Positions 7,379-52,536 of a stretch of 64,000 bases of DNA are shown here, in pieces. The DNA comes from Microgenomates group bacterium. GTDB taxonomy: Bacteria > Patescibacteriota > Microgenomatia > UBA1400 > MFAQ01. The translations under genes and the position numbers were made by a program. Every line of letters starts with the position of its first letter. Positions within the stretch are counted from its first letter, which is position 1. Where the stretch lies: contig JBAQNH010000002.1 of assembly GCA_049303575.1 (NCBI GenBank), positions 444,541 to 508,540 of the forward strand, written 5' to 3'. The notes beneath the pieces were generated by a model, which searched no databases, was not told the DNA's origin, and saw nothing but the letters and a program-made list of their open reading frames with translations.

Positions 7379-7397
7379 AAGGATAAATTTATTAGAA

Positions 7398-8246: not shown

Positions 8247-8262
8247 GGGAAGTAAAAACTAT

Positions 8263-13117: not shown

Positions 13118-13118
13118 A

Positions 13119-14997: not shown

Positions 14998-15081
14998 GGA
15001 CTTATTGTATTTTAGTCTATATTTTCCTCATCTACACAGCTATGAGGAATATATAAATTTGAAAAGCTATAATAAAACCAG

Positions 15082-20801: not shown

Positions 20802-21624
20802 AATAGTTGTTCATTGCATAGTTAAAAATGAAGAAAACTTCATTTGGTACGCACTTCAATCTGTTCTTCCTTTTGTTGACAAAATTATGATTTGGGATAC
20901 CGGCTCGGAGGACAAAACCGTGGAAATTATCAAATCCATGGACTCTCCCAAGATAGATTTTGTCGAAAAAGGATCGGTCGACTCGGAAACACACACAAAA
21001 TTGAGAGGAGAGATGTTAGATAAAACAGACAAACAAAAATACCGCTGGCTTTTGATTCTTGATGGTGATGAAATTTGGGGCAAAAAAGAAATAATCAAAA
21101 TGATCGAGATTGCCAACAAGAAAGAACCATCAGCAATTGTCGTGAGAACTATCAACCTGGTTGGTGACATCTACCATAAACTACCGGAGTCGTCAGGAAA
21201 ATACGAAATTGCTGGTCAAAAAGGACACCTTTCAATTAGACTTATCGATCTATCGTTAAAAAATCTTAAGGTAATGAACCCTCATGGCGGTCAGACATAC
21301 ACCACCTCCGGAACCGCCATTCAAAATCTGCCGATTAAAGAATTATTCTTCTCGGAAGAAATCTATTTTTTTCACACCACCCACCTTGAAAGATCTTCTC
21401 TTGATAGTAAAACTCTGAAACGCAGTTTCAAGCGGAAATATGAAATAGGGGAAAAAATAAAAACAAACTCATTACCAGAAATCTTCTTTCAAAAACATCC
21501 TTCAATTGTTCCGGAAGTAACCAAGCCAATGAGTGTGGTTATCTTTCTACGTTGCCTCCTGGAAACCATCCCTAAACGCCTCAAGAGAAAATTTTTCCCA
21601 TCCAAAAAATCCGGCTATATATGA
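20788..21624 (+). CDS. GT2-like glycosyltransferase
   Basis: HCIVKNEENFI...DKIMIWDTGSEDKTVEII matches the GT2 pattern (v.NEe..l...l.s.....DEiiVvDtGStD.T.ei). The track ORF starts at 20740; the ATG at 20788 avoids the overlap. Confidence 0.55.
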   Translation: MKTNKIVVHCIVKNEENFIWYALQSVLPFVDKIMIWDTGSEDKTVEIIKSMDSPKIDFVEKGSVDSETHTKLRGEMLDKTDKQKYRWLLILDGDEIWGKKEIIKMIEIANKKEPSAIVVRTINLVGDIYHKLPESSGKYEIAGQKGHLSIRLIDLSLKNLKVMNPHGGQTYTTSGTAIQNLPIKELFFSEEIYFFHTTHLERSSLDSKTLKRSFKRKYEIGEKIKTNSLPEIFFQKHPSIVPEVTKPMSVVIFLRCLLETIPKRLKRKFFPSKKSGYI

Positions 21625-22382
21625 TTGGTCAAGAAAAATACTATCAGTTGGCAAAAGAAGCCAGTTCACAGATTAAAAATCACCCCGGTCTTTTAACAAT
21701 CCAAAGATTTGCCTCAAAATCTAAAAAAATTCTCGATGTGGGTTGTGGTGAAGGAACTCGTCTCAATTTGTTCTCCGGAAAAGCAAAAAATGGAACCGGT
21801 GTGGATGTCAGCTCTTTTGCTCTTCACAAAGCAAACAAGCAGTACCCTCGCCATAACTTTGTTCTAGTCAAAGATGAGGAGCTCCCTTTCACTTCCAACA
21901 CATTTGACTTGGTTTATACCACGTTTGTTCTCGAACACACCCAAAATCAAGAACTATTTATCAAAGAAATGATTAGAGTAACCAGGGAAGATGGATTGAT
22001 TGCCATTCTCTGTCCCAATTATGGTTCTCCAAATCGCCGTTCACCAGTATCCACAGAAACGCCATTAAAAAAACTGTTACTTGGTTTTCTTCAGGATATT
22101 ATTCCATCGGGAAAATCGTCCTTGTCATTTACCAAGGTTACCCCAAAAAAAATCTTCAAGAACCCCGACGACGACACTACTTGTGAGCCATACTTACTCA
22201 AACTTCAAAGATATGTTTCTCATTTTTCAAATATTAAAATTGAAAAATCCTCTTCACTTTGGGAGATTGACGACCAGGCAAACAGTATTCATCAAAGATT
22301 GTTTAAATATCTTGGAACACAAAACATTTTTCCTTTTAAATACTATGGCCCACAGCTCTTTATTGTTTTAAGAAAGATCTAG
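21621..22382 (+). CDS. Class I SAM-dependent methyltransferase (type 11-like)
   Basis: ILDVGCGEGTRLN is motif I; VDVS and FDLVYTTFVLEH follow downstream. Confidence 0.7.
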   Translation: MIGQEKYYQLAKEASSQIKNHPGLLTIQRFASKSKKILDVGCGEGTRLNLFSGKAKNGTGVDVSSFALHKANKQYPRHNFVLVKDEELPFTSNTFDLVYTTFVLEHTQNQELFIKEMIRVTREDGLIAILCPNYGSPNRRSPVSTETPLKKLLLGFLQDIIPSGKSSLSFTKVTPKKIFKNPDDDTTCEPYLLKLQRYVSHFSNIKIEKSSSLWEIDDQANSIHQRLFKYLGTQNIFPFKYYGPQLFIVLRKI

Positions 22383-23074
22383 TCTTCCAGGTTATATTTC
22401 AAAATACACCACAAAGCCCAGACACCATCTTTCCAATTGATTTTTTTTCCTTGGTCGTAGTTTCTTCCCGAGTAACTAACCCCGATTTCATAAACCCGGC
22501 ACTGCATTCTCGCAATCTTAGCTGTAAACTCCGGTTCCATACCAAAACGATTTTCTTGGAGATTTAGATTGTCGGCAACCTTGCGGGTGAACATCTTATA
22601 CCCCGTTTCCATGTCGGTGAGGTTGATGTTGGTCATCATATTTGATACCAGTGTCAGAAATTTGTTCCCTACCATGTGCCAGTAGTTGAGAACTCGGTGG
22701 GGTCTGTCACCCAGGAAACGAGAGCCGAAAACAACATCTGCCTTTTTGTCTAGAATTGGCTGAAGAAGTAGGGGATACTCCTTCGGGTTGTACTCCAGGT
22801 CGGCGTCTTGGATGATTATGATGTCTCCTGTTATTTCCTTTAGTCCTCGTCTTATGGCCGACCCCTTTCCCTGGTTTTTCTTTTGGAAAAATACTTTTAC
22901 TTTCTTACTTCTTATTTTTTTCAATATTTGAGTCGTACCATCCTTCGAACCATCATCCACCACAATTATCTCCTTGGCTAGTTTTCCAATATTTGCTTTC
23001 AAAACTGCCGAAATAGCCTTTTTGATAAAAGCCTTTTCGTTGTACACCGGCATAATAACTGATAGCTTTTTCAT
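22379..23074 (-). CDS. Polyprenyl-phosphate glycosyltransferase (GT2, DPM1/ArnC/GtrB-like)
   Basis: LSVIMPVYNEK, IIVVDDGSKDGT and IIIQDADLEYNP match the layout of Dpm1-type polyprenol-P-sugar synthases. Confidence 0.8.
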   Translation of the reverse strand: MKKLSVIMPVYNEKAFIKKAISAVLKANIGKLAKEIIVVDDGSKDGTTQILKKIRSKKVKVFFQKKNQGKGSAIRRGLKEITGDIIIIQDADLEYNPKEYPLLLQPILDKKADVVFGSRFLGDRPHRVLNYWHMVGNKFLTLVSNMMTNINLTDMETGYKMFTRKVADNLNLQENRFGMEPEFTAKIARMQCRVYEIGVSYSGRNYDQGKKINWKDGVWALWCILKYNLED

Positions 23075-23099
23075 TCTGGCTCTAGTTTACAATAAGATT

Positions 23100-24185
23100 A
23101 TGAAACTAGCGTTTGTAAATTTCTATTCCGGAATTGCCCAAAGGGGAGGGGAGACCTATGTTAATTCATTAGCCGAAAAACTTTCTCGAAGACATCAGGT
23201 CTATGTTTTCCAGGCGGGGCCGCAAAAAGAAAAAGGATTATATCGGATTGAGGAAATAAAAATTTCCTTTAATCCAAACCATTCTCATTCAAAACTTCCG
23301 GTAACTCACATACTCAAACGTCTCTTTCTAGACTATTTTCACCTCAAAGAACTGATATTTACGATAAAGCTCTTACCCAGACTTTGGAAAATCAAACCGG
23401 ATATTATCTTTCCCCAAAATTCAGGATGGGAAGTATTGTTACTTCGAATGTTTTCTACCATTATTCGCTCCAAGGTAATTGTCGCCGGACAATCCGGTCC
23501 CGGTTGGAACGACAGGATTAATCTTTATGTACGCCCGGATATTTTTGTAGCACTAACCAAAAACCAGGCTAATTGGGCCCAAAGAATCACCCCCTGGAAA
23601 GATCAAAAAATCGTCGTGATACCCAATGGTGTTGATTTGGAAAGATTTTTACCCAAAGGAAAGAAACAAGCCATCAGTCTTTCAAAACCAATAGTACTAG
23701 TAGTAGGTGCCGCCATAAAAAGCAAAAGAATTAAAGACACCATTAGGGCTGTTGCCAGGCTAAAAAATACTTCATTGCTCGTGGCTGGTACCGGTCCTCT
23801 GGAAAAAGATGAAGACCTCCTTGGAAAGAAATTATTGGGAAGTCGATATGAAAGAATTAAGGTAGCTCATGAGGACATGCCCAATATCTATCGCAGCGTT
23901 GATACTTTTACTCTATGTTCCGACAGTAGTGAAGCTTTCGGTATTGTCTACCTCGAAGCTCTCGCATCCGGTCTTCCCTGTGTGGTTACGGATGACGCCA
24001 GCCGTCGGGAAATTCTTAATGATGCCGGCATTTATGTGAAAGATCCAGAAGACCAAAAAGAGTACGCCGACAAGTTAAAGGAAGCCCTTCTCCAAAAATC
24101 ACCCGAAAAATATCTTAAACGGGCAGAAAAATATTCCTGGGACAAAATCGCCGACAAGTATGAAAAAATCCTGGACAAAAAATAG
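23100..24185 (+). CDS. Glycosyltransferase family 4
   Basis: MKLAFVNFYSGIAQRGGETYV at the N-terminus; SEAFGIVYLEALASGLPCVVTD is EX7E. The track ORF starts at 22974, but the ATG at 23100 lies clear of the divergent neighbour. Confidence 0.75.
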   Translation: MKLAFVNFYSGIAQRGGETYVNSLAEKLSRRHQVYVFQAGPQKEKGLYRIEEIKISFNPNHSHSKLPVTHILKRLFLDYFHLKELIFTIKLLPRLWKIKPDIIFPQNSGWEVLLLRMFSTIIRSKVIVAGQSGPGWNDRINLYVRPDIFVALTKNQANWAQRITPWKDQKIVVIPNGVDLERFLPKGKKQAISLSKPIVLVVGAAIKSKRIKDTIRAVARLKNTSLLVAGTGPLEKDEDLLGKKLLGSRYERIKVAHEDMPNIYRSVDTFTLCSDSSEAFGIVYLEALASGLPCVVTDDASRREILNDAGIYVKDPEDQKEYADKLKEALLQKSPEKYLKRAEKYSWDKIADKYEKILDKK

Positions 24186-24852
24186 TCATCAAATCCTGGA
24201 GCAGGCGACTAATCTCGATAATTACAATCGCTGGATTATTTCCATCTTCAAACAATATTTCGGAAATAATATTCTTGAAGTTGGTTCAGGACTTGGTGGT
24301 CTCTCTCAGTATTTACCCCACGTAAATATCACCCTATCTGATGTTCGCACCGATTATTTCAAACATTTAAAGACTCGGTTTGATTACGCAACAGTCAAAT
24401 TAAATATTGAAAAAGGATCACTAGATAAACTAATTAATTCTTACGACACCATATTTTCCTCCAATGTTTTTGAGCATCTTCAAGACGATCGGAAAGCCAT
24501 CAAAAACTGCTTCTCACTCTTAGAGCCGAGAGGAAAATTGTTGCTCTTTGTTCCTGCTCGTCCTGAAATAATAGGACAACTCGACAAAGCCATGGGTCAT
24601 TATCGTCGGTACACCAAAGAAGAATTATCAAAGAAGGCTATCAGCGCAGGATTCAAAATAATCAAAATTAAATACGTTAATTTTCCGGGCTATTTCACTT
24701 GGTGGTTAAGAGGCAGGTTGCCTGCAAAAACAAAATCCGATGGTTTTCTGGCCAAAGCATTCGATACTCTTATCGTTCCACTTTTATATCTAGAAAAACA
24801 CATCACCATTCCTTTTGGCCAAAGTTTGATGTTGGTTACCCAAAAACCTTGA
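24160..24852 (+). CDS. Class I SAM-dependent methyltransferase
   Basis: ILEVGSGLGGLSQYL is motif I, LSDV follows, and FSSNVFEHLQDD is motif II/III. Confidence 0.65.
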   Translation: MKKSWTKNSHQILEQATNLDNYNRWIISIFKQYFGNNILEVGSGLGGLSQYLPHVNITLSDVRTDYFKHLKTRFDYATVKLNIEKGSLDKLINSYDTIFSSNVFEHLQDDRKAIKNCFSLLEPRGKLLLFVPARPEIIGQLDKAMGHYRRYTKEELSKKAISAGFKIIKIKYVNFPGYFTWWLRGRLPAKTKSDGFLAKAFDTLIVPLLYLEKHITIPFGQSLMLVTQKP

Positions 24853-25833
24853 TTACTGTTTTGCCTTAGGAATATTTACTTCCGCTTCCCAAGCCGAAGC
24901 AATTATTTCTTCTATCCCTGGGTATTTAGGAATCCATCCTAACTCCGCTTTGGCTTTTTCGGAGGAAGCCACTAGTCTGGCCGGGTCACCTGCTCGTCTC
25001 TCGCCCATAACTACAGGTACGGGTTTCCCAGTGACTTTTTCTACCGAGGCAATTACTTCTTTTACAGAGTAACCGGCACCATTACCCAAATTAAATTCAT
25101 TGGTGGAAGAAGTTTCCATTTTTTGTATTGCCAAAAGGTGGGCGTCAATCAAGTCGGAGACATGAACATAATCGCGGACACATGTTCCGTCGGGAGTGTC
25201 ATAGTCAGTGCCGAAGATAGCGATGTTTGGTCTCTCTCCTTTGACTACCTGAAAAACTAAGGGAATCAGATGAGACTCCTGAACATGTTGCTCTTTACTC
25301 TGTGTCGTTGCTCCACAAGCGTTAAAGTAGCGGAAAATGGTGTACTTCAGACCGTAGGCTTCGGCATATCTCTTGATTACTTTTTCAAAGAAATACTTTG
25401 ACTCTCCATAAGGATTAATAGGATCCTTTTCGGCACTCTCATTTATTGGCACTATTTTTGGATTACCAAAAACAGCCGCTGTCGATGAAAAAATAATTTT
25501 TTTGACATTGTTCCGCATCATGCCGTCAAGAAGATCCACTCCCTGCCCCAGATTATTTTGGAAATATTTCCCCGGTTCTTTTACTGATTCACCAACTTGA
25601 ATTAATCCCGCAAAATCCAAAACTGTGTCAATCTGGTGTTCTGTAAAAATCTTGTCCAGTAAGGCTCCATCTCCTTTATCGCCTTGGTAAAAAGCAGCTT
25701 TCGGATGAATATTTTCTTTATGACCGGTTTTGAGGTTATCAAGAATTATCACTTCGTCACCTCGATCAATCATTTTTTCTACACAAACGCCTCCAATATA
25801 GCCGGCTCCGCCGACAACTAAATATTTACTCAT
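24853..25833 (-). CDS. galE: UDP-glucose 4-epimerase
   Basis: MSKYLVVGGAGYIGGVCV, the SSTAAVFG region and NPYGESKYFFE (Y-x3-K) are classic GalE motifs. Confidence 0.9.
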   Translation of the reverse strand: MSKYLVVGGAGYIGGVCVEKMIDRGDEVIILDNLKTGHKENIHPKAAFYQGDKGDGALLDKIFTEHQIDTVLDFAGLIQVGESVKEPGKYFQNNLGQGVDLLDGMMRNNVKKIIFSSTAAVFGNPKIVPINESAEKDPINPYGESKYFFEKVIKRYAEAYGLKYTIFRYFNACGATTQSKEQHVQESHLIPLVFQVVKGERPNIAIFGTDYDTPDGTCVRDYVHVSDLIDAHLLAIQKMETSSTNEFNLGNGAGYSVKEVIASVEKVTGKPVPVVMGERRAGDPARLVASSEKAKAELGWIPKYPGIEEIIASAWEAEVNIPKAKQ

Positions 25834-25864
25834 ACTTTATGTTACTACAGCTATAATTGATTTA

Positions 25865-27145
25865 ATGAATTTTTTCGATAATCTGAAAAAGAAATTTCGC
25901 GTCCACAGATATCTGATTTTAATTATTATTTTATTTGCAATCGGTACTTTTTTGAGGCTATACAACTTTCAAAACCGTTTGATTTTTGGTCCAGAACAGG
26001 CAATTTCTTTGATTACCGCTTCCTCGTACCTTGATAAGTTTTCCTTGTTGGGCGAAGTAAATCTTCAAAGAACCACTAGTACGGGTTTAAATCCATTTCA
26101 TGGAGCCTACTTTAATTATTTTCTTGTTCCATTTGTCATCTTATTTAAATTCAACCCCTTACCAATTACTTATTTTTTCTTATTCCTAAACCTCTTTACT
26201 GCTTATCTTTTTTTGTATGTTTCAAACAAGTTATTCGGAAAATTAATGGCTGTATTTGCCCTAATATACTTTTTATTCAGTTCCAAGATGATTCACCACT
26301 CTCTCTTTATATGGAATCTAAATTTTTTGCCCTTACTCGGAATTCTTGTTCTGTGGATACTTGCCAATCTTTATAAAAATCGACAAAAAGTAATCTACCC
26401 TTTCTGGCTAGGTATTATCGGTGGTATTGGTTTCGGTCTCCAATATTTATTTTTACCGTTCATAATTTTTACCTTTGTTCTTTCGATTCTATTGTCAAAA
26501 AAGAAAATCCAATCAATTATTGCCTTTGTTGTCGGAATAATAATTGGAGGCTTATCAATGGTTATTTTTGATCTTCGTCACGATTTTTATTACACAAGAA
26601 CTTTGTGGCAGTACTTTATTGATTCAATCAACAATAGGGTTAATGGCGGAATTCATTACTATGATTTTATGTATCTTTTACCATATCTATTTTTGATTTA
26701 TGCCGCGGTTACAACCGTACTCTACAAGACATGGAAACCACTGTGTTTAATTCCCCTTACCATCTTTATCTTCATTAGCTTAAAATCACCTCAAATTAAT
26801 TACCAAAACTCCACAGGAGTGGCCCCAGGAATCACTCTTAAGGCTCTTGAATCTGCTTCAGCAACTATTGCAGCTGACAACCCTCCAAAAAAATACAATG
26901 TGGTGACTCTCTGGGATTTTGATACTCGTGCTCATACCCTCCGTTACTTTCTAACTAATTACTACAAACGACCTCCCCAAGGAGTGGAAGAATACAAAAA
27001 TATAGATGCTTTATATGCATTTGCTCCAGAAGGCTACAATATTGATAGTCCTAATGTGTATGAACTCAACTCATTCTTTCCATATAAAATTACTGAGTTA
27101 TCATCAAATACCACAGGTTACCGTCTATACAAGCTAACCAAATGA
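25865..27145 (+). CDS. Polytopic membrane protein (candidate GT-C-type transferase)
   Basis: About 10 TM segments followed by a ~110 aa C-terminal soluble region. Sits inside a GT2/GT-C cluster. Confidence 0.4.
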   Translation: MNFFDNLKKKFRVHRYLILIIILFAIGTFLRLYNFQNRLIFGPEQAISLITASSYLDKFSLLGEVNLQRTTSTGLNPFHGAYFNYFLVPFVILFKFNPLPITYFFLFLNLFTAYLFLYVSNKLFGKLMAVFALIYFLFSSKMIHHSLFIWNLNFLPLLGILVLWILANLYKNRQKVIYPFWLGIIGGIGFGLQYLFLPFIIFTFVLSILLSKKKIQSIIAFVVGIIIGGLSMVIFDLRHDFYYTRTLWQYFIDSINNRVNGGIHYYDFMYLLPYLFLIYAAVTTVLYKTWKPLCLIPLTIFIFISLKSPQINYQNSTGVAPGITLKALESASATIAADNPPKKYNVVTLWDFDTRAHTLRYFLTNYYKRPPQGVEEYKNIDALYAFAPEGYNIDSPNVYELNSFFPYKITELSSNTTGYRLYKLTK

Positions 27146-27858
27146 CCCTCACAATTGTCGTCCCTACTCTAAACGAAGAAAAAGATTTATACAAAACGCT
27201 ATCTTCAGTCAAAGACTTGGCCGATGAAATTTTGGTGATTGATTCCGGTTCAACCGATAAAACCATTGAGATAGCTAAAAATTATGGAGCCAGAGTCGTT
27301 AACCATTCATTTACTTCTTTCTCCGACACCAGAAACTTTGGCAACGATGAGGCAAAAGGAAACTGGATACTCTCCATCGAAGCCGATGTTGTTGTCTCCC
27401 AAGAATTAGGGACCGAAATACGTCAAGCCATCGAAGAAAATAAATACTCTGCTTTTTATATTCCCCGTCTCAATCTCATTTGGGGCAAACCAATTCGTCA
27501 TACCGACTGGGGTCCTCGCGACGACTGTCATATCTGGCTCTACCAAAAGGGGAGTGGTGCTTGGCAAAGTCTGGTTCACGAAGAATATGTGACGACAAAA
27601 CCGACCGGCAAACTCAAAAACTACTTGGTTCACAAAAATTACGAAACCATTTCTGAGTTTATCGACAAAGTTGATCGTTATTCCAGTCTGGCCGTCAAAC
27701 AGAAAAACATTTTTCCAAACTGGTGGTTCTTGCGCGACTTTTTCAAACGCTATTTCTACAAGCTTGGTTTCTTGGATGGCTATCACGGTTTGTTTTTAAG
27801 TTATCTGCAATCTGTGTATTACCTTACCCTTACGGTCAAAAACAAAACCAAGCAATGA
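27142..27858 (+). CDS. Glycosyltransferase family 2
   Basis: LTIVVPTLNEEKDL and ILVIDSGSTDKTIEIAK are the GT2 DxD-region architecture. ATGA overlap with the upstream gene. Confidence 0.7.
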   Translation: MTLTIVVPTLNEEKDLYKTLSSVKDLADEILVIDSGSTDKTIEIAKNYGARVVNHSFTSFSDTRNFGNDEAKGNWILSIEADVVVSQELGTEIRQAIEENKYSAFYIPRLNLIWGKPIRHTDWGPRDDCHIWLYQKGSGAWQSLVHEEYVTTKPTGKLKNYLVHKNYETISEFIDKVDRYSSLAVKQKNIFPNWWFLRDFFKRYFYKLGFLDGYHGLFLSYLQSVYYLTLTVKNKTKQ

Positions 27859-29228
27859 TAATTATTATTGCCATTCTAGGGTTAATCCTGCGCCTTGTAC
27901 TCGCCAACCAAAGTTTTTGGTTGGACGAAGGTGCTTCTCTCATGGCCGCCCGTATTCCTCTTGCCCAGTTCTTCGAGTATCTCAAAGCCGACTTCCACCC
28001 ACCCCTTTATTATCTTTTCCTCAAACTTTGGTTACCTTTAGCCGGAAATACCGAGTGGCTCATTCGTCTTCCCGATATTCTCATCGGCACCGCCAGTATT
28101 TATCTCGTCTATCTTCTCAGCAAAAGTATTTTTGGCAATAACTCAAAACTCCCTCTCCTTATGGCCATTCTTCTGTCCCTAAACCCATTCCACATCTACT
28201 ACACTCAAGAACTTCGTATGTACAATTTTTCCACTTTCTTCGTTCTACTTTCTTGGTTGGCTCTCCTTAAAAATAAATATCTATTTGTCGGAATCGCCAA
28301 CTTCCTTAGTATTTTTACTTTTTATGGTGCCGGTTTCAACTTTGTTAGTCAGGGATTGTATCTTCTGTTTTCCAATCGAAAAAATATTTGGCGCTACCTC
28401 ACCTCATTTTTACCTACAGTTCTTGGATTTATTTTCTGGTGGCCAATATTTTCTATCCAGCTTTCAGGCGGGGACTTCATGCAAAATTCTCTACCTGGTT
28501 GGAATCTTCTCTCCGGATCGGCTACCGCCAAGTCATTTCTCTTGATACCAATCAAATTCATCATTGGTCGAGTCAATCTAGAGCCCCAGTCTCTCTACTT
28601 CGCTGTCGGTGGCTTACTTCTGGTTATCTTTTCTTGTTTAATTCTGCTTTCCCTCAAGGACAAAAAAAGTAAACCTCTCTGGTTTTTCTTTCTTACACCA
28701 TTAGTCTTAGCTACCCTCATTAGTTTTAAAACACCCATCCTTGGTTACTGGCGTTATCTTTTTCTTCTCCCTCCATTTTTAATGCTTCTGGCGGCTGGTG
28801 TCTGGCAGCTACCCCGTCGTCTCCGCACACTAGCCATCACTTTTATCAGTCTGGTTTTTGTTTCTGCAAATATCTATTTCTGGGTTTCGCCTCGCTTTCA
28901 AAGAGAGGACTGGCGTGGTTTTACTAGTATGATCAACGGCAAACAAGCCTTAGTCATTCTTCCTTTCTCCGGAGTCTTTGCTCCACTTACTTTCTACCAA
29001 ACCGACGCTTTTTACTACCCCGCCCAACAAAACCTAGGGAAAACCGACGCCGATATTAGTGCTAAGCTTTTGCCTCTGACAAAGAAATATCAAACTATTT
29101 ATGTTATGGAATATCTTTCCGACCTCTCCGATCCGAATCGTAAGATTCTCAATACGGTAAGGGAACTGAAGCAAAAAGAAAAAGCAGTCTATAATTTTAA
29201 TAATCTAGGCCAGGTATACGAGTTCTAG
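27855..29228 (+). CDS. GT-C fold glycosyltransferase, ArnT/PMT (GT39/GT83)-like
   Basis: FWLDEGASLMAARIPL is the DE-motif loop of ArnT/PMT-type enzymes, and the protein is polytopic. The track ORF starts at 27723; the ATG at 27855 gives an ATGA overlap. Confidence 0.6.
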   Translation: MIIIIAILGLILRLVLANQSFWLDEGASLMAARIPLAQFFEYLKADFHPPLYYLFLKLWLPLAGNTEWLIRLPDILIGTASIYLVYLLSKSIFGNNSKLPLLMAILLSLNPFHIYYTQELRMYNFSTFFVLLSWLALLKNKYLFVGIANFLSIFTFYGAGFNFVSQGLYLLFSNRKNIWRYLTSFLPTVLGFIFWWPIFSIQLSGGDFMQNSLPGWNLLSGSATAKSFLLIPIKFIIGRVNLEPQSLYFAVGGLLLVIFSCLILLSLKDKKSKPLWFFFLTPLVLATLISFKTPILGYWRYLFLLPPFLMLLAAGVWQLPRRLRTLAITFISLVFVSANIYFWVSPRFQREDWRGFTSMINGKQALVILPFSGVFAPLTFYQTDAFYYPAQQNLGKTDADISAKLLPLTKKYQTIYVMEYLSDLSDPNRKILNTVRELKQKEKAVYNFNNLGQVYEF

Positions 29229-29234
29229 AAACTT

Positions 29235-30335
29235 ATGAAAATTGCTATTGATATTTCTCAAGCCATTTATGGCACCGGTGTCTCTGTTTACACCAAGAAC
29301 CTCGCCGCTACCCTAATTAAACTCTATCCCGATGACCAGTTCATTCTCTTTGGCGGTTCCTTGCGTCGTAAACAGGAACTTATCTCTCTTGCCAAAAAAC
29401 TCAAAGGCACTCCCAAGATTTATCCTTTCCCCCCTACCTTCATGGACTTAATTTGGAACTCTCTCCATATTTTTCCGGTCGAAAAACTCATCGGCGAAGT
29501 CGACATCATCCACACCTCAGACTGGACCGAACCACCATCCAAACTCCCCAAGGTAACCACCGTTCACGACCTCATTCCCTTCAAGTTTCCTCACACAACG
29601 ACGGAGTCGATCAGAAATACCCACAAAAAACGCCTCGCCTGGGTTATGCGTGAATCAGACAAAATCATTGCCGTTAGTCAGTCCACCAAGGAAGATCTCA
29701 TTTCCATACTCAAGATTCCCGCAGACAAAATCGTTGTTATTTCCGAAGGGGTAGAGGATAGATACTCTCCACAATCCGTCGACATTCAAGAAATTATTAA
29801 AAATCGTTACAAAATCAATGAAGATTTTATTTTTACTCTTTCTACTCTTGAGCCGAGGAAAAATCAGGCAAGGCTTATCAAAGCTTTTCAGCTGGTTAAA
29901 AAAGACTATCCGAATCTCCAGTTAATCATTGGCGGCCGCACTGGCTGGGGTGAGATTCCGGAAGCCGTTGAGGGTGTTTCCATGCCCGGCTACATTCCTG
30001 ACTCTGATCTTCCTGGGCTCTACTCCGGCTGCCTCGCTTTTGTTCTCCCCAGTATTTATGAGGGTTTTGGGCTTTCACCTCTCCAGGCTATGGCTTGTGG
30101 AGCTCCCGTCGCCGTTAGTAATACTAGTAGCCTTCCAGAGGTAGTCGGTGAGGCTGGTGTTCTTTTTGACCCGGAGAGTGTAGAATCTATCGCGACTGGT
30201 ATAATTGAGGCTATCAAAAATAGAAGTAGGCTCAAAGAAAAAAGTCTCGCCCAAGCATCCAAATTCACCTGGGAAAAAACCGCCAAAGAAACCTACAGAG
30301 TCTACCAAGAAGTTCTGTCTAAAAATAATTTATGA
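29235..30335 (+). CDS. Glycosyltransferase family 4
   Basis: YEGFGLSPLQAMACGAPVAVSNTSSLPEV is the GT4 signature. Confidence 0.8.
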   Translation: MKIAIDISQAIYGTGVSVYTKNLAATLIKLYPDDQFILFGGSLRRKQELISLAKKLKGTPKIYPFPPTFMDLIWNSLHIFPVEKLIGEVDIIHTSDWTEPPSKLPKVTTVHDLIPFKFPHTTTESIRNTHKKRLAWVMRESDKIIAVSQSTKEDLISILKIPADKIVVISEGVEDRYSPQSVDIQEIIKNRYKINEDFIFTLSTLEPRKNQARLIKAFQLVKKDYPNLQLIIGGRTGWGEIPEAVEGVSMPGYIPDSDLPGLYSGCLAFVLPSIYEGFGLSPLQAMACGAPVAVSNTSSLPEVVGEAGVLFDPESVESIATGIIEAIKNRSRLKEKSLAQASKFTWEKTAKETYRVYQEVLSKNNL

Positions 30336-31447
30336 ACATCGGATTTGATATTAATGAAGCCAATATTCCCCAAAGAGTCGGCGTCAACCAAGTAGCCTAC
30401 AATATTTTTCTGCACCTAGCCAAACAAATCGCCGAAAACGACAAACTTTTTGCTCTTGGTAAAGAAAGACCTCTGCCGGACATGCCGGTAGGTAACGAAA
30501 AACTCACCTACGAGATTTTTGGTTCCAAAAAAGCTTGGGTTCTCACTAGTCTTACTAAAAGACTCTGGTTTGGCCAACCCAAGATCGATGTTTTATTTTC
30601 CCCTAGTCACTACACACCACTTTTTTCTCCCACAAAGACCGTTATTTATCTCATGGACATGAGTTTTGAACGCTTTGGCACCGAGTACTTCACCGACTAC
30701 GACATCAACCAACTTAAAAAATGGACTCCCTTGTCGGTTAAGAAAGCTAAAAAAGTCCTCACCATTTCCGAGTTTTCCAAAAGCGAGATTATGAAACTCT
30801 ACGGTACATCCTCGGACAAAATTGAAGTAGTTTACCCGGCTTTTGACAAAGAAATCTATCACGGTAAAGTTCCCAAAACTAAAATTGTTTCCGTCAAGAA
30901 AAAATACGGTATTGTCGGCAGCTATCTTCTTTACTGGGGAACCCTTCAACCCCGAAAAAATATTTCCCGTTTGATCGATGCCTTTGCCAAACTGGACAAG
31001 TCCCAACTCAAGCTCGTCATCGCCGGCAAAAAGGGTTGGCTCTACGATCAGATTCTCGAACAGTCAAAAAGACTTGGCATTGAAAACCGCGTTATCTTTA
31101 CCGGGTTTGCTCCCAACGATGACCTTCCCGCCCTCATCAAAGGCAGTCGTGCCTTTGTTCTCCCCAGTCTTTACGAAGGTTTTGGTATGCCTGCCGTTGA
31201 GGCTCAGGCTGTTGGTACCCCCATTGTTGTTTCCAGAGTCAGTAGTCTTCCCGAGGTAGCCGGATCATCCGCGCTTTACATCGAAGACCCCGAGTCTGTT
31301 GACAGTATTAAAACCGCCCTTGAACAGGTACTTGCACTTTCTATCGGTGAAAGGCTTAAACTGATTAAAGAGGGGAAGGAAAATACCAAGCGTTTTGACT
31401 GGGATATCTCCGCTCAAAAAATCTTAAATATATTAAAAACAGTATGA
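30332..31447 (+). CDS. Glycosyltransferase family 4
   Basis: [29 protein letters not shown] is the GT4 signature. ATGA overlap with the upstream gene. Confidence 0.8.
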
Positions 31448-32079
31448 AAATAAGTAACCTCAATATTGGCTCGGACGGTATACAGTTTGTTGACAAAGAT
31501 GGAAACAGACTCGAGACCTCCAAGGCCATTGGTAAAATTACCAATCGTTTCGGAAGTTTCTTTCTTGACCTCTGGCTACTTAAACTTACCTGCGTTGGCC
31601 ACGTCCCATTTCATGGGTATAGAAACTTTTTCTACCGCCTTTCCGGTATCAAAATGGGCAAAGGTTCTACTTTCCATATGGGAGCTAGATTCTTCCTCCC
31701 TAAAAATATTGAGATTGGGGAGGGGACCATCGTCGGTGATCACGCTTTCTTTGACGGCCGCGCCAAAATAAAAATCGGTAAACAAGTTGATATCGCCTCT
31801 CAGGTAATGATCTACAACTCCGAACATGATCTGTCAGATCCTACTTTCAAAGCCATCGAAGAGCCTGTCACCATTGGTGACTACGTTTTTATCGGACCTC
31901 GCGTCATCATCATGCCGGGAGTTAATGTTGGCAACGGTGCCGTCATTGCCGGTGGAGCAGTTGTTACCAAAGACGTCCCAGAAAACACCATTGTTGGTGG
32001 CGTTCCTGCAAAAGAAATTGGACAAAGACCCCTCAAAGTCCAAAATTACAAACTGGGCAGAGCCAGGCTATTTCAATGA
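31444..32079 (+). CDS. Hexapeptide-repeat (LbH) sugar O-acetyltransferase, WcaF/maltose acetyltransferase-like
   Basis: Repeated [LIV]GxxxxI hexapeptides, e.g. [13 protein letters not shown]...[25 protein letters not shown]. Confidence 0.75.
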
Positions 32080-32633
32080 AACTAAAGTATCTTTTAGTCG
32101 GAGCGATCTACCTTCTTGGTTTTGTTTATCTCACCTTACCTACACCGGAAACTCCCGAGCTTTCGCAAGCGGTACGTTCTAACGAGCCCGGCGACACCTG
32201 GCAAAACCCCGATCAAAAAGGTTTTTACACCGACTCCAATAGAGCCCAGGTGATAGGGGAGATGCAGTCAAAATACTCTCTCCAATTTAACGGCTACCCC
32301 CTTCCTTCATACAGACTTAACTACCGTCCCGAAGAAGCCTTTGAAATGGTTCGGGATCAGCTTAATAGTTACTATCTTGAAGAAATTGTTTACCCCCTAA
32401 GAAACTCTCTTTTTGTTAACGGCTGGGAACCGATTCACTCTCCTCGATACGCCGACCGAGAACTCAAAGAAATCCCCATGATTTCTTTCAATGGAATTCC
32501 CTACATCAGCAAGGTCACTCTTAAGCCGGTCAACTCACCAGTCTGGGCGCGTCTTTTAATTTGGACTCTCATCTTTCCGGCTAGTTACTTAGTTTATTTT
32601 TCCTTTAAAAAATCCTTAGACAAAAATGTCTAA
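32076..32633 (+). CDS. Hypothetical bitopic membrane protein
   Basis: N-terminal and C-terminal TM segments flank a ~120 aa hydrophilic domain. No recognisable motif. Confidence 0.35.
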
Positions 32634-33534
32634 ACTCGATCTGTCCATCATCATCGTTTCCTTCAATACTAAGGAAATTCTCACCGACTGTGTTAAATCC
32701 ATTGTCAAATACACCAAAGGCATCGACTACGAAATTATCATCGTTGACAACGACTCCAAAGATGGTTCACTTGAGCGAATCAAAGAACTCGAAAAACAAT
32801 ATCCCCAAATTAATCTCATCGATGCTCAAGCCAATCTTGGTTTCGGCAAAGCCAACAATCTGGGTGCTAAAAAAGCCAAAGGGGAGTACTTACTCCTACT
32901 AAACTCCGACACTCTCATTTTTGATAACGCCATCAAAGAGTCCCTCGAAAGTCTGAAGAAAATTCCCAGTGCCGGAGTCTACTCTTGCAGACTTCTAAAT
33001 TCCGATAAAACAGTTCAGGCATCGGGTGGTCACTTTCCCAACTTCGGCAATGTTTTTGCCTGGCAGTTTTTTATCGACGACCTTCCCTTTATTGGTAACC
33101 TAATCCCCTCCTTCCACCCCCAGGTTTCCTCATATAACCGTAACAAACAAATGGACTGGGTCACCGGAGCATTTATGCTTATTCCCAAAAATGTTTTTGA
33201 CGAAGCAAATGGTTTTGACGAAAACATTTTTATGTATACCGAAGAGATGGAACTTTGCTACCGTCTTAAAAAACTGGGTTACCAAACTATTTACCAAATT
33301 TCCCCATCCATCATTCATCTCGGGGGAGCATCAGGTGGTTCTGTCCTTGCTCTGACTAGCGAAATCAAAAACATGCTTTACTTCTGGAAGAAGCATAAAC
33401 CAAGCTGGCAGCTTTTCTTCATCAAATCCTTCTTCTTTATTGGTTCATTGCTTCGTCTATTAATATTTGGGATAATCAAAGGAGATGAAAAAGCCCGCCG
33501 TGCCTATACACAAGCTCTTGGACTCATTATTTAA
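32626..33534 (+). CDS. Glycosyltransferase family 2 (rhamnosyl/galactosyl-transferase type)
   Basis: LSIIIVSFNTKEIL and YEIIIVDNDSKDGS are present, with a C-terminal EEMELCYRL (ED-motif region). Confidence 0.75.
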   Translation: MSKLDLSIIIVSFNTKEILTDCVKSIVKYTKGIDYEIIIVDNDSKDGSLERIKELEKQYPQINLIDAQANLGFGKANNLGAKKAKGEYLLLLNSDTLIFDNAIKESLESLKKIPSAGVYSCRLLNSDKTVQASGGHFPNFGNVFAWQFFIDDLPFIGNLIPSFHPQVSSYNRNKQMDWVTGAFMLIPKNVFDEANGFDENIFMYTEEMELCYRLKKLGYQTIYQISPSIIHLGGASGGSVLALTSEIKNMLYFWKKHKPSWQLFFIKSFFFIGSLLRLLIFGIIKGDEKARRAYTQALGLII

Positions 33535-34840
33535 GTACGCCTTAGCTGCTGTTCTGGTATTTATTCCACTTTACCCAAAGTTTCCTCTTTTTATACTTCC
33601 TTTTACCTACGTGCAGATTAGAGCCGAAGATTTTTTGATCGCCGCAGTTTGGGGAATCTTCTTTCTCCGTTTATTGTTTACCCGCAAGTTCAAGTTTCCG
33701 CCCTTATCACTGCAAATCGGAATTTTCTTCGTCATAGGTTTACTTTCCGCCATCTCGGCTATTCTAATCACCAAAAATGTTATCCCTACGGCAGTCCTAC
33801 TTCACTACTTCCGCCGGGTTGAATATCTCTCTATCTTTTTCCTAGTCTATGCCGCTGTTGACTCGGCTCAAACTCGCCGCTACTTCTTAGAGCTCGCCAT
33901 TCTCCCCGTTATCGGTGTCTTTTTCTATGGACTGGCCCAGATGTATCTTGGTGCTCCAGTTATTTCCACCATGAACGTCGAGTCCAGCAAGGGAGCAGCC
34001 CTCACTCTCCGCCCTGGTGTGCCTCTCTCTAGTACTTTTGCCGGTCACTACGATCTAGCAGTCTATCTCACCATGATGCTCACCTTCTTTACCGGACTAC
34101 TTTGTTCTCTCAAAAGCCGATTTAAATTGATTCTTTCCTTCGTTGCTTTCCTCGCCACTCTTTGGCTTTTTATGCAAGCCGGTTCCCGTATCGGTCTCTT
34201 GGGTCTATTCTTGTCCATCTCTCTGGTTAGTTTCCTTTACAAAAAATATCTTATCGGAGCCGTTTTGATTATCACTATGTTTGCCTTTATCGCCACCTCG
34301 CCCGGATACATCGACCGCTTCAAGTCCATCATCAACATCTTCACCGCCAAGATGAGTCAAGTATTTACGCCATCGGTTTACGCCGTCTCCGTTACTCCTA
34401 CACCTACTATTACCATCGCTCCAACTCCAACTCCGACACCGGAACCGCTTCGTGCCCTCCAACAAGACACTAGCACCAGTATCCGTTTTGATGTTGAGTG
34501 GCCTCGCGCTCTACGCTCTTTCTACAAAAATCCTTTCCTGGGAACCGGTTATTCTTCCATTACTCTTTCCACCGACAACGACTATCTTCGTGCTCTTGGG
34601 GAAACAGGTCTTCTTGGATTCCTTGCCTTCGTTTCCATAATTCTTGGCCTCTTCATTAAATTAATTAAAAACTTAAAGAACGTTGTTGGCCAAGACAAAC
34701 TACTGACCATCTCTGCTCTGGGAATTCTCGTCGCTTTTGCGACCACCGCCATCTTCCTTGACGTTTTCGAGTCCAGTAAAATTGCCATTCTCTTCTGGGC
34801 TTTCATGGGACTGGCCTTAAGTACCAACAAAAACAGTTAA
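33485..34840 (+). CDS. O-antigen ligase/polymerase family (Wzy_C-like) membrane protein with PT-rich linker
   Basis: Polytopic. The C-terminal GTGYSSITLSTDNDYLRALGETGLLGFLAF matches the O-antigen-ligase motif (GxG...NxYL..l.E.G..G). A PTPTITIAPTPTPTPEP linker is present. The start is uncertain because it overlaps the upstream gene. Confidence 0.6.
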   Translation: MKKPAVPIHKLLDSLFKYALAAVLVFIPLYPKFPLFILPFTYVQIRAEDFLIAAVWGIFFLRLLFTRKFKFPPLSLQIGIFFVIGLLSAISAILITKNVIPTAVLLHYFRRVEYLSIFFLVYAAVDSAQTRRYFLELAILPVIGVFFYGLAQMYLGAPVISTMNVESSKGAALTLRPGVPLSSTFAGHYDLAVYLTMMLTFFTGLLCSLKSRFKLILSFVAFLATLWLFMQAGSRIGLLGLFLSISLVSFLYKKYLIGAVLIITMFAFIATSPGYIDRFKSIINIFTAKMSQVFTPSVYAVSVTPTPTITIAPTPTPTPEPLRALQQDTSTSIRFDVEWPRALRSFYKNPFLGTGYSSITLSTDNDYLRALGETGLLGFLAFVSIILGLFIKLIKNLKNVVGQDKLLTISALGILVAFATTAIFLDVFESSKIAILFWAFMGLALSTNKNS

Positions 34841-34841
34841 T

Positions 34842-36269
34842 ATGCGCAAAATAGATTTTTTGATTGCCCTAATCATCACCGTTATTTGCTTTACGGTCAG
34901 ACTTTACAAGATCGACAATCCCATCGCCGATCAACACTCCTTCCGTCAAGCCGACACCGCTGCTGTTGCCCGAAACTTTATCAAGGAAGGTTTTAATCCG
35001 CTTTTTCCCCAGTCCGACAGTTTTACGGCACTTAGTGAAACTCAGATTCCTAACCCCAAGCGTTACTTTATCAACGAGTTTCCTCTTTACAACTCCATTG
35101 TTGCCCTCGTTTATTACTTCAAAGGAATTAATCCAATCTATGCTCGTCTTGTCAGTATCTTTTTTGCCTCTCTCGGTACTTTCTTCCTTTATTTGATCGG
35201 CAAAAAACTATTCAGTACTAAAGTTGCTGCTCTGGCGGCACTTTTTTATGCTGTTTTACCTTTCAATATCTACTATGGCCGGGTAATTATGCCGGATCCT
35301 ACCTTTATTAGTTTCTCCATCATTTCTTTTTATCTCCTCCTTCGTTTTGTGGACAAACCAAACTTTTTAAGAGGAATTCTCTTTTCTCTGGCCTTCGCTC
35401 TTGCCATGCTCGTCAAACCCTACGCCATTTTCCTTTTTATCCCCTTCGTTTACTGGGTCATAGCGAACCACGGGTTGGGATCACTCAAAAAACCCATGTT
35501 CTATCTTGCCCCAGTGATCGCCATAACTCCACTTCTTCTCTGGCGCTACCACGCCTCACTTTACCCGGAAGGTATTTTTTACTCTTCCTGGCTTCTGAAT
35601 AAATACGACATTAGATTTACCGGAGCTTTTTTCCGCTGGCTAATTTTTGACAGAATGAATCGTCTTATTTTTGCGACCGGAGGTTTTGTCTTATTCTTCT
35701 TCGGTCTGGTGCACTCTCTGCTCTCCAAAAAAGGTTGGCTCATGGTCTCTTGGCTTTTAAGTGTTCTTGCCTACTTCACTGTTTTTGCCGCCGGTAATGT
35801 TCAACATGATTACTACCAGTTACCCATCATGCCAGTTGGCGCTCTTCTTGTCTCTCTCGGTTTCTTTGCCATAATCGACAATGGTAAAAATATTTTTCAA
35901 AAACTCTCTCTGGGAGTTCTCGCTTCGACCCTCATTGTGATTTCCCTTGCCTTTGGTTGGTACGAAGTCCGCGGCTTTTTCAACGTTAACGACTGGAACA
36001 TGGTCGAAGCCGGAAAAAGAGTTGATGAAATTACTCCCCTGGATGCCCTCGTCATTGCTCCTTACCAAACCAACCCGGCCTTCTTGTACCAAACCAACCG
36101 CCATGGCTGGACAATGGGCTATGATATAGAGAAGAAAATTGCCGAAGGGGCCACCTATTATGTCTCAACGAGCTATGATGATGAAGCCAGGGGACTGGAA
36201 AAGAAATATACTCTGGTAGAAAAAAACGACAAATACATCATTATCAAATTGACGGAAACAAAAAAATGA
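34842..36269 (+). CDS. GT-C fold glycosyltransferase, ArnT/PMT (GT39)-like
   Basis: The N-terminal first-loop RQADTAAVARNFIKEG and the polytopic profile over 475 aa are family-typical. Confidence 0.55.
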   Translation: MRKIDFLIALIITVICFTVRLYKIDNPIADQHSFRQADTAAVARNFIKEGFNPLFPQSDSFTALSETQIPNPKRYFINEFPLYNSIVALVYYFKGINPIYARLVSIFFASLGTFFLYLIGKKLFSTKVAALAALFYAVLPFNIYYGRVIMPDPTFISFSIISFYLLLRFVDKPNFLRGILFSLAFALAMLVKPYAIFLFIPFVYWVIANHGLGSLKKPMFYLAPVIAITPLLLWRYHASLYPEGIFYSSWLLNKYDIRFTGAFFRWLIFDRMNRLIFATGGFVLFFFGLVHSLLSKKGWLMVSWLLSVLAYFTVFAAGNVQHDYYQLPIMPVGALLVSLGFFAIIDNGKNIFQKLSLGVLASTLIVISLAFGWYEVRGFFNVNDWNMVEAGKRVDEITPLDALVIAPYQTNPAFLYQTNRHGWTMGYDIEKKIAEGATYYVSTSYDDEARGLEKKYTLVEKNDKYIIIKLTETKK

Positions 36270-45706: not shown

Positions 45707-45744
45707 GTGTTATGCTAGATGGAGTGAGAAGGTGTTTCTCTATA

Positions 45745-45895
45745 AATTAAATAGCGTGTGGCCTCACAGGAACCCCCTTTGAGGATACGAGGAAGAAGGT
45801 TGTCGATAATCTGCGGATGCCTTCTGGTTACGCCTTTCTAACCAAAAGGGTACATAGTACCCAAGATCGGTGATTCACAAATCTCACACTAGTTA
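45745..45895 (+). ncRNA. glmS_ribozyme: glmS ribozyme (GlcN6P-dependent self-cleaving riboswitch)
   Basis: AUAGCGUG...GAGGAUACGAGGAAGAAGGUUGUCGAUAAUCUGCGGAUGCCUUCUGG...AACCAAAAGGGUACAUAGUACCCAAG...AUCUCACA aligns block by block with the remembered Bacillus glmS ribozyme (A^GCGCC cleavage site, GACGAGGAUGGAGGUUAUCGAAUUUUCGGCGGAUGCCUCC core, AAACCAAGGGGGUGACUCCUUG pseudoknot arm). It sits immediately 5' of glmS. Confidence 0.8.
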
Positions 45896-45915
45896 TTAAT
45901 TGCTATGCAAAACCT

Positions 45916-49435: not shown

Positions 49436-49438
49436 TCG

Positions 49439-51115: not shown

Positions 51116-51141
51116 CGCCAACACTGTTAAAATATAAACAC

Positions 51142-52533: not shown

Positions 52534-52536
52534 TTT

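Follow-up and report, generated by a model that had tools for sequence, protein, structure and literature searches.

Which surface glycan is made by a dense array of glycosyltransferase genes in a Microgenomates group bacterium, and on which side of the membrane is it assembled? We addressed this question in a 64,000-nucleotide stretch of contig JBAQNH010000002.1 (GenBank assembly GCA_049303575.1, positions 444,541 to 508,540, forward strand), hereafter the window. An original prediction, made from the letters alone, had proposed a Dpm1-like synthase of a polyprenyl-monophosphate sugar, three or four membrane glycosyltransferases of the GT-C class and, beside them, a cytoplasmic assembly line on undecaprenyl pyrophosphate (Und-PP). 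All of the open reading frames (ORFs) that it named are present at their coordinates, and their length, family matches and conserved synteny indicate that they are not chance features. The reading that we favor, with a probability of roughly 0.55, is that the cluster makes a conserved cell-envelope heteropolysaccharide of peptidoglycan-bearing Microgenomates by two coupled routes, cytoplasmic assembly on Und-PP and extracytoplasmic additions; two such routes would be the natural reading of the gene content. The window has three parts, of which the first (1-16.6 kb) is a glycan module of low guanine-cytosine (GC) content (0.28-0.34) and the second (16.8-44.3 kb) is a glycan cluster of higher GC content (0.38-0.45).

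The candidates for the extracytoplasmic route are four proteins, with lengths given in amino acids (aa):

15082-16632, plus strand: fourth protein of GT-C fold, 516 aa, rare family; in the low-GC module, divergent from the flippase gene at 13663-14997.
25865-27145, plus strand: GT-C protein, 426 aa, divergent PMT_2-related family, assigned through homologs and a structure model.
27855-29228, plus strand: GT-C protein, 457 aa, PMT_2 at 8.4e-10 (39.5 bits against a cut-off of 26.1).
34842-36269, plus strand: GT-C protein, 475 aa, above cut-off for PMT_2 (1.4e-19) and PMT (7.1e-12).

All four are polytopic by Kyte-Doolittle hydropathy segments and, judged by family profiles and structure models, all four are GT-C glycosyltransferases, where the original prediction had left the count at three or four. 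For 27855-29228 and 34842-36269, the Pfam matches listed above confirm the assignment directly. The other two, which had been offered as possible further members, have no Pfam or NCBIfam match of their own. The family of 25865-27145 numbers 226 homologs of about 415 aa at E <= 0.001; among the 120 listed, many carry PF13231 (PMT_2) and a few PF02366 (PMT) as well. Its AlphaFold2 (AF2) model, built on 26 homologs, reached a pLDDT of 93.4, and its Foldseek matches in the PDB at E < 0.1 are all GT-C enzymes (ArnT, the best at 8e-5, STT3, AglB, ALG12, ALG9, AftB, and Pmt4). The family of 15082-16632 is far smaller, with only 13 close homologs and 19 clusters at E <= 0.001 in a profile search of 1.84 billion representative proteins; PMT_2 was matched by 4 of the 12 members scanned, mostly distant ones, at up to 6.6e-5. 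The AF2 model of this protein is of moderate confidence (pLDDT 70.6), and its best 18 Foldseek PDB matches are all GT-C enzymes, including STT3 (2.3e-6), PglB (1e-5), DPY19, AftA, and ArnT. At E < 0.05, the Foldseek PDB matches of both proteins are GT-C enzymes without exception, and no transporter or Wzy-type polymerase was found among the significant matches of either. Both models show at least 10 long helices followed by an alpha/beta C-terminal domain.

Each family keeps acidic residues just past the first helix at a conservation of at least 90%: D24/E25 in 27855-29228, D30/D38 in 34842-36269, E44 in 25865-27145, and D33 in 15082-16632. The FWLDEGAS motif forms residues 22-29 of 27855-29228, whose first-loop residues W22, L23, D24, E25, D46, H48, P49, and P50 are kept in at least 90% of the family; this protein also matches the NCBIfam model of the mannosyltransferase MT1671 at 8.8e-8. 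Its longest ORF opens at GTG 27723, but ATG 27855 is most likely the real start, because it gives a 4-nt overlap with the upstream stop and agrees with the N-termini of homologs. The conserved first-loop residues are D30, H32, S33, R35, Q36, A37, D38, and T39 in 34842-36269, and E44 and Q45, kept in at least 90% of the family, in 25865-27145; the invariant residues of the 15082-16632 family are G31, D33, Y37, D58, R328, and W412. Positive N-terminal charges in 25865-27145, 34842-36269, and 15082-16632 suggest that the first loop faces outward.

The cluster had been said to hold several GT-C paralogs. Several GT-C genes are indeed there, but close paralogy was not borne out: pairwise BLASTP among the five polytopic proteins gave no significant similarity, the sole profile link among the four GT-Cs is the detection of 34842-36269 by the family profile of 27855-29228 (8.9e-16), and a profile-profile comparison of the 15082-16632 and 25865-27145 families was not significant. 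We dropped the label on the basis of these BLASTP and profile results, except for 27855-29228 and 34842-36269, and by the same comparisons the four are not recent paralogs. PDB sequence searches with 27855-29228, 34842-36269, and the Wzy_C protein described below gave nothing useful, nor did PDB searches with the family profiles of 25865-27145, 15082-16632, and the 185-aa protein described below.

A single gene of the locus looks suited to provide a lipid-linked donor:

22379-23074, minus strand: GT2 glycosyltransferase of GT-A fold, 231 aa, PF00535 at 5.5e-37.

The five best NCBIfam matches of this GT2 are AglJ (8.8e-34), PpgS (1e-21), PgfS (6e-21), ArnC (6e-20), and a haloarchaeal dolichyl-phosphate (Dol-P)-hexose transferase (3e-17), all of them enzymes that load a sugar onto polyprenyl phosphate. 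These matches cover more than 85% of the protein, except that of PgfS (residues 3-177), and the PpgS match spans positions 4-212 of the 226 of the model; other GT2 families align to the N-terminal ~100-135 residues only. Among PDB sequences, the four best matches are again all lipid-phosphate sugar synthases, namely the Pyrococcus Dol-P-mannose synthase 5mlz (1.2e-19) and then three ArnC structures, with GtrB further down. In the alignment to 5mlz, the PxYNE, DAD, and GSR signatures are recognizable (PVYNE/PTYNE, DADLEY/DADLQH, and GSRF/GSRY). We therefore predict a polyprenyl-phosphate sugar synthase of the Dpm1/AglJ/PpgS/GacI type. The Dpm1/ArnC/GtrB layout originally assigned to this protein holds for the catalytic domain, which is of the Dpm1/AglJ/ArnC type in NCBIfam and PDB comparisons, but not for the C-terminal transmembrane (TM) helices of GtrB and ArnC, as the hydropathy scan found no transmembrane or hydrophobic segment in its 231 residues. 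Since, in addition, the homologs among the matches listed all measure 206-241 aa, the enzyme is by its sequence of the soluble type, as are GacI, PpgS, and human DPM1. It is 83-84% identical on contigs where the GT-C 25865-27145 is 56% identical, which would fit a conserved donor-making step that feeds more variable transferases. A comparable set of lipid-phosphate-sugar-synthase matches in NCBIfam or the PDB is lacking for the four further GT2s of the locus; 27142-27858 and the remaining GT2s were considered as extra lipid-sugar synthases and rejected, their best matches being GmaR, SunS, and exopolysaccharide (EPS)-type GT2 enzymes.

The genes expected for an Und-PP-linked repeat-unit pathway are the following, together with a second flippase:

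13663-14997, minus strand: second MOP/Wzx flippase, Polysacc_synt at 8.6e-18; in the low-GC module.
19548-20801, plus strand: core MOP/Wzx flippase, matching Polysacc_synt_3 (2.9e-21) and Polysacc_synt (2.1e-20); also opens the cluster in related loci, where it is conserved.
33485-34840, plus strand: polytopic Wzy_C protein, polymerase/ligase candidate, PF04932 at 1.5e-13; conserved in 28 related loci.
41668-42318, plus strand: PglC-like small monotopic phosphoglycosyltransferase, predicted to initiate on undecaprenyl phosphate (Und-P), Bac_transf at 1.8e-57 and TIGR03025 at 3.9e-71.

These Pfam matches agree with the Wzy_C-like protein, the PglC-like enzyme, and the two flippases named at the outset, and the set of the Wzx/Wzy-dependent pathway (initiating phosphoglycosyltransferase, Wzx, and Wzy_C) is thus all present in the window. 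The PglC-like protein has a single N-terminal hydrophobic helix. The large loop of the Wzy_C protein contains a Ser/Thr/Pro-rich track (TPSVYAVSVTPTPTITIAPTPTPTPEP...; residues 295-332, nucleotides 34367-34480) that is probably disordered. At least 10 of 27 Wzy_C homologs carry a comparable track in the corresponding place; the track could be a linker or an O-glycosylation target.

We then compared the locus across genomes, using 38 loci from species-representative genomes and three from metagenomes, with flanks of up to 10 kb. Gene order was mapped by phmmer best matches and GT-C genes were counted with family hidden Markov models in 40 loci. About 40 Microgenomates loci share the core gene order, which reads Wzx, GT2, (methyltransferase), GT4, GT-C 25865, (GT2), GT-C 27855, GT4, GT4, acetyltransferase, 185-aa protein, (GT2), Wzy_C, GT-C 34842, GT4. 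It was seen in Collier-, Woese-, Davies-, and Amesbacteria and in Microgenomatus, and is kept down to about 40% protein identity, which is unusually strong for a surface-polysaccharide locus. This conservation across candidate families points to a conserved envelope polymer and not to a variable capsule. At least three GT-C genes are present in 27 of the 40 loci (three in 14, four in 9, and five in 4), and the loci with fewer are mostly on truncated contigs. The family of 27855-29228 was found in 30 related loci, and that of 34842-36269 always lies directly downstream of the Wzy_C gene. One further protein belongs to this core:

32076-32633, plus strand: conserved 185-aa protein, function unassigned, with no match in Pfam, NCBIfam, or the PDB.

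It occurs in 31 related loci, between the acetyltransferase and Wzy_C genes. The hydropathy scan scores one segment (residues 3-21), and a C-terminal hydrophobic stretch is visible by eye only; with both stretches, the protein would have a Wzz-like two-anchor topology, and it may play an accessory role.

The 15082 family is not in the conserved core. The original prediction had counted 15082-16632 in the same locus, but it lies in the separate low-GC module, which has its own Wzx. In one related locus (L001, JGI Ga0209514_10000005, a 1.02-Mb contig), positions 107-11242 hold a Dpm1-like GT2 followed by an array of seven consecutive polytopic genes, PMT_2 members among them, for proteins of 374-617 aa. 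Four of these match GT-C family profiles, one of 374 aa is PIG-V-like, and the remaining two are without a match. Further downstream, the locus has a fifth GT-C recognized by profile, of the 34842 family, so GT-C arrays appear to expand in this lineage.

According to the reading that we favor, the first route would begin with the PglC-like enzyme, which would start a glycan on Und-P. GT4 and GT2 enzymes would extend it in the cytoplasm from precursors made by ManC, a GMD-like dehydratase with a reductase/epimerase, GalE, and GlmS, while methyltransferases and a WcaF-like acetyltransferase would modify it. A Wzx flippase would export the lipid-linked unit and the Wzy_C protein would polymerize or ligate it. 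In the second route, the soluble GT2 22379-23074 would put one hexose or N-acetylhexosamine on Und-P, and the resulting lipid-monophosphate sugar would be flipped, maybe by a Wzx protein, as proposed for GacK; a Wzx protein is suggested for this step because no GtrA is present. On the outer face of the membrane, the core GT-Cs 25865-27145, 27855-29228, and 34842-36269 would each transfer the sugar to a site of their own on the exported repeat unit or polymer, and 15082-16632 may play a corresponding part for the low-GC glycan module next to the core. We infer the donor sugar, the flippase, the acceptor, and that the GT2 works with each of the GT-Cs; the folds and families, the first-loop acidic residues, and the gene order and its conservation are direct observations.

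The remaining genes of the cluster, including those of the first route, are:

16808-17833, plus strand: GDP-mannose 4,6-dehydratase (GMD)-like protein, Pfam match; TIGR01472 at 9.2e-94, below cut-off.
17830-18576, plus strand: methyltransferase, Pfam match.
18600-19538, plus strand: SDR epimerase/reductase, Pfam match.
20740-21624, plus strand: weak GT2, Pfam match.
21621-22382, plus strand: methyltransferase, Pfam match.
23100-24185, plus strand: GT4, Glycos_transf_1 at 4.3e-24.
24160-24852, plus strand: S-adenosylmethionine-dependent methyltransferase, Methyltransf_12 at 1.4e-10.
24853-25833, minus strand: GalE, UDP-glucose 4-epimerase, TIGR01179 at 1.3e-113 (379 bits against a cut-off of 262); adjoins the GT-C 25865-27145.
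27142-27858, plus strand: GT2, not Dpm1-like, between two GT-C genes, PF00535 at 1.3e-20; best PDB matches GmaR (4e-15) and SunS.
29235-30335 and 30332-31447, plus strand: two GT4s, Glycos_transf_1 at 3.2e-32 and 5.1e-36; in nearly all related loci.
31444-32079, plus strand: WcaF-family hexapeptide O-acetyltransferase, Hexapep at 3.6e-13 and NF007797 at 2.2e-28.
32626-33534, plus strand: GT2 of general type, PF00535 at 1.4e-27, with NCBIfam EPS-type GT2 matches.
36266-37474, plus strand: GT4, Pfam match.
37437-38384, plus strand: GT2, Pfam match.
38385-39524, plus strand: GT4, Pfam match.
39521-40624, plus strand: GT4, Pfam match.
40595-41617, minus strand: ManC-like mannose-1-phosphate guanylyltransferase, NTP_transferase and ManC beta-helix; TIGR01479 at 1e-38, below cut-off.
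42341-44263, plus strand: DUF4012 protein, last in the cluster and adjoining the PglC-like gene, 640 aa, PF13196 at 4.6e-22, one N-terminal TM helix.

Apart from the Dpm1-like GT2, the cluster holds six GT4, four GT2, three methyltransferases, one WcaF-like acetyltransferase, and the PglC-like, Wzx, and Wzy_C proteins. The genes from 25865 to 40624 have 4-nt overlaps or gaps of 0-6 nt, the two longer apparent overlaps reflecting uncertain start codons, and this tight packing suggests a single operon. The ORF of the first GT4 opens at TTG 22974, but its likely start is ATG 23100 (MKLAFVNF, at codon 43), which leaves 25 bp between the divergent starts of this gene and the GT2 22379-23074.

The original prediction had thought of wall-less or S-layer-bearing cells. 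The first premise is contradicted by the same window, which continues as follows:

45742-45900: glmS ribozyme/riboswitch, scoring 45.6 bits for RF00234 (gathering score 37); just upstream of GlmS.
45916-47640: GlmS, directly 3' of the ribozyme.
47798-57932: dcw cluster, with MraZ, MraW, a penicillin-binding protein (PBP) with a transpeptidase domain, MraY, FtsW, MurG, a 279-aa ORF without assignment, FtsA, and FtsZ.

RecO, a 297-aa ORF without family match, the glmS ribozyme, and GlmS thus lie between the glycan cluster and the dcw cluster. Because MraY, MurG, FtsW, and a PBP are encoded here, the gene content indicates that the source bacterium makes peptidoglycan.

Several observations weigh against the two-route reading. 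No more than 13 of the 40 loci have the Dpm1-like GT2 at a distance of up to 10 kb from the GT-C core, on the opposite strand every time, so one synthase serving three or four GT-Cs, as originally proposed, is an assumption. In the window, this GT2 and the nearest GT-C are at most 2.8 kb apart, and in three loci (L003, L006, and L032) it divergently adjoins a GT-C gene at 27-462 bp. It should be noted that in two others (L026 and L029) it lies 8-9 kb upstream, at the edge of the DNA fetched, so its absence from the other loci is not established. In addition, the GT2 falls far below all equivalog cut-offs (AglJ 117 bits against 325 and PpgS 77 against 370), and its sugar specificity therefore cannot be assigned. 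A membrane anchor, whether its own TM segment or a small partner of the GacJ, DPM3, or Rv3632 kind, was not found in the window, and a search of all small hydrophobic ORFs of the window for a GtrA-type flippase or a GacJ-like partner gave none in the cluster. Pfam scans of the window gave no Wzz/PCP chain-length regulator, and no LCP ligase was detected. Finally, a GT-A enzyme, an epimerase, and two GT-Cs would also fit the Pgf protein-glycosylation operon (PMC12041528).

This last point bears on the acceptor, which according to the original prediction could be protein or lipid. The Pgf operon of S. mutans (PgfS, PgfM1, PgfE, and PgfM2) glycosylates Ser/Thr-rich disordered regions of membrane-associated proteins (PMC12041528), and a Pgf-like or actinobacterial Pmt-like system would have the GT-Cs add sugars to such regions of pilins, PBPs, or division proteins instead of to a polysaccharide. 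The likeness extends to a GT-A, a GalE-like epimerase, and two GT-Cs, with a GT2, GalE, GT-C, GT-C order that resembles pgfS-pgfM1-pgfE-pgfM2 (PMC12041528); the GT2 matches the PgfS and PpgS models (6e-21 and 1e-21), two of the GT-Cs belong to the PMT/PMT_2 families, and the Wzy_C protein itself carries the Ser/Thr/Pro-rich loop track shared by at least 10 of its 27 homologs. However, that track is the sole one of its kind among the window ORFs of at least 150 aa, and no pilin or S-layer gene was found in the window. Pgf is a stand-alone four-gene operon acting on proteins, whereas the genes studied here form a cluster of ~28 kb that also encodes an initiator, Wzx, Wzy_C, and numerous glycosyltransferases of the cytoplasm. 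Throughout the class, the GT-C genes alternate in a fixed order with those for GT4, Wzy_C, and the acetyltransferase, to which they are translationally coupled, as is typical of polymer decoration (PMC8035078). We regard protein O-glycosylation as doubtful, and the gene context favors the polysaccharide itself as the acceptor, because the backbone enzymes and the GT-Cs are encoded in alternation and conserved together.

The GT-Cs might also build chains themselves, on a lipid-linked primer made by the GT4s, as in the extracytoplasmic polymerization of mycobacterial lipomannan/lipoarabinomannan and arabinogalactan, the product being an essential, class-wide envelope polymer instead of a repeat-unit polysaccharide with decorations. 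The ManC-like and GMD-like genes of the cluster would be in line with this, polyprenyl-phosphate mannose from GDP-mannose being an example of a donor, and so would the match of 27855-29228 to the mycobacterial MT1671 model (8.8e-8), the gene order kept to ~40% protein identity, the 80-90% conservation of the GT2 22379-23074, and the arrays of 4-5 or more GT-C genes in relatives. Mycobacterial systems of this kind include Ppm1 with PimE, MptA-C, and Pmt, as well as PpgS (Rv3631), Rv3632, and Rv3779. Shared with them are a soluble GT2 without an anchor of its own and, on our reading, several GT-Cs that draw on one lipid-linked donor; unlike PpgS, the GT2 shows similarity at superfamily level only (77 bits, with an equivalog cut-off of 370); a partner resembling Rv3632 was not found, and the pathway as a whole is a different one. 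Indeed, the PglC-type initiator, Wzx, and Wzy_C indicate an Und-PP-linked repeat-unit pathway, and processive GT-C activity would be an assumption on top of a GT2 whose sugar specificity is not assignable. We consider such chain building unlikely.

En bloc transfer of a complete Und-PP- or Und-P-linked glycan to protein, either by a GT-C (15082-16632 above all) acting as a PglB/AglB-like oligosaccharyltransferase or by the Wzy_C protein acting like the PglL-type enzymes, which share the Wzy_C domain, is very improbable: STT3 (2.3e-6) and PglB (1e-5) are the best structural matches of 15082-16632 and the archaeal N-glycosylation enzyme AglJ is the top NCBIfam match of the GT2, but the model of 15082-16632 is of moderate confidence (pLDDT 70.6), the monophosphate-donor users DPY19, AftA, and ArnT match it almost equally well, a PDB search with its family profile brought up no chain of STT3, PglB, or AglB, and it was rejected as an oligosaccharyltransferase because it has no WWD[YW]G motif and its first loop has one invariant Asp (D33), not a DxD pattern, so that the likeness is at fold level only.

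Among known systems, the decorated polysaccharide of the two-route reading looks most like the multi-component transmembrane glycosylation of Gram-positive wall polysaccharides of the GacI/GacK/GacL type. In Gram-positive polysaccharide clusters, GT-C genes decorate the polysaccharide concerned, and the variant with a soluble GT-A and a Wzx-type flippase is GacI/GacJ/GacK/GacL (PMC8035078): GacI (a GT-A without membrane helices), GacK (the flippase), and GacL (the GT-C), all encoded in the polysaccharide cluster, decorate the rhamnopolysaccharide of S. pyogenes (type (b) in PMC8035078). The cluster shares with this system a predicted Und-P-sugar GT-A without TM helices, Wzx-family flippases instead of GtrA, GT-Cs encoded within the polysaccharide gene cluster, and a monoderm, peptidoglycan-bearing organism. 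It differs in having three co-conserved GT-Cs of distinct subfamilies, against one in the group A carbohydrate, in having no detectable GacJ-like small membrane partner in the window, and in a backbone pathway that looks Wzx/Wzy-dependent with a PglC-type initiator.

The general logic would be that of GtrA/GtrB/GtrC in O-antigen modification and of CsbB/GtcA/YfhO and GtlA/GtcA/GtlB in teichoic acid glycosylation: a sugar is loaded onto a lipid monophosphate in the cytoplasm, the product is flipped, and a GT-C passes the sugar on at the outer face. GtlB and GttB are likewise PMT_2 proteins (PMC8035078). These systems have C-terminal TM helices in GtrB and CsbB and a GtrA-family flippase, neither of which is in the cluster. 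The ArnC/ArnT system of lipid A modification also resembles it in that ArnT is the top structural match of 25865-27145 and ArnC is among the best of the GT2, but no lipid A, outer membrane, or 4-amino-4-deoxyarabinose (Ara4N) genes are in view, and ArnC has TM helices.

The low-GC module at 1-16632 is set off by a GC step from 0.28-0.34 to 0.38-0.45 at ~16.7 kb. It contains an AsnB-like amidotransferase, methyltransferases including a TylF-like one, GT4s, a DUF2334 deacetylase, its own Wzx, and the GT-C 15082-16632. As the 15082 gene is on the same contigs as the core cluster in close relatives, a recent transfer of this module is not shown. Four adjacent genes at 10346-13673 may form a sugar-activation pathway. 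Two of them, for a ribulose-phosphate 3-epimerase and for an HxlB-type 6-phospho-3-hexuloisomerase, exceed their NCBIfam cut-offs; the others encode a KdsC-like phosphatase and a protein of 522 aa that begins with a nucleotidyltransferase domain and, by eye, has a kinase-like motif toward its C-terminus. A heptose pathway that had been considered for the SIS and HAD genes of this module was withdrawn, as NCBIfam identified them as the hexuloisomerase and the KdsC-like phosphatase.

At the other end of the window (58000-64000), only short ORFs (at most 247 aa) are present, among them one for a TspO-like five-helix protein at 59139-59612, and no tRNA or Rfam match was found there. The cumulative GC skew drops almost linearly from 6000 to 64000, despite mostly plus-strand genes. 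An equal strand disparity has been reported for the order UBA1400, including Collierbacteria (PMC7143001), and the skew thus fits the placement of the source in that order. The named organisms nearest to it are Candidatus Collierbacteria, with 72% identity at the GT-C 25865-27145.

Earlier work on a Microgenomates genome counted 29 glycosyltransferase genes (PMC7143001), and for Peribacteria ~8 genes of the Dol-P-Man-transferase-like kind are on record (PMC4736985); our literature searches found no description of the conserved Microgenomates cluster. Its mechanism is already known, and nothing in it departs from established logic, so the finding is of value for annotation and comparison and does not introduce a new concept. 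The elements that appear new are the class-wide gene order, the three distinct GT-C subfamilies in one operon, the conserved 185-aa protein, a GT-C family with E-Q in place of a DxD-like motif, and the very rare fourth GT-C family. As a tentative possibility, the core cluster might make a wall glycopolymer that is essential and class-wide and is assembled for the most part outside the membrane, with polyprenyl-phosphate sugars as donors; in these ultrasmall bacteria it would be a functional counterpart of mycobacterial arabinogalactan/lipomannan. If so, the 25865 family (with its first-loop E-Q, not DxD) and the rare 15082 family would be unrecognized GT-C subfamilies.

Glycan genes make up ~46 kb of the window, or ~6% of a 704-kb contig of an uncultured bacterium with a reduced genome, two of whose proteins are 100% identical to window proteins. 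Patescibacteria are thought to live attached to other cells, and on this assumption their surface chemistry would be central to their biology, yet it is almost unknown. To that biology, the cluster offers enzymes that can be tested: a highly conserved predicted lipid-sugar synthase, three co-conserved GT-Cs, and a conserved 185-aa protein.

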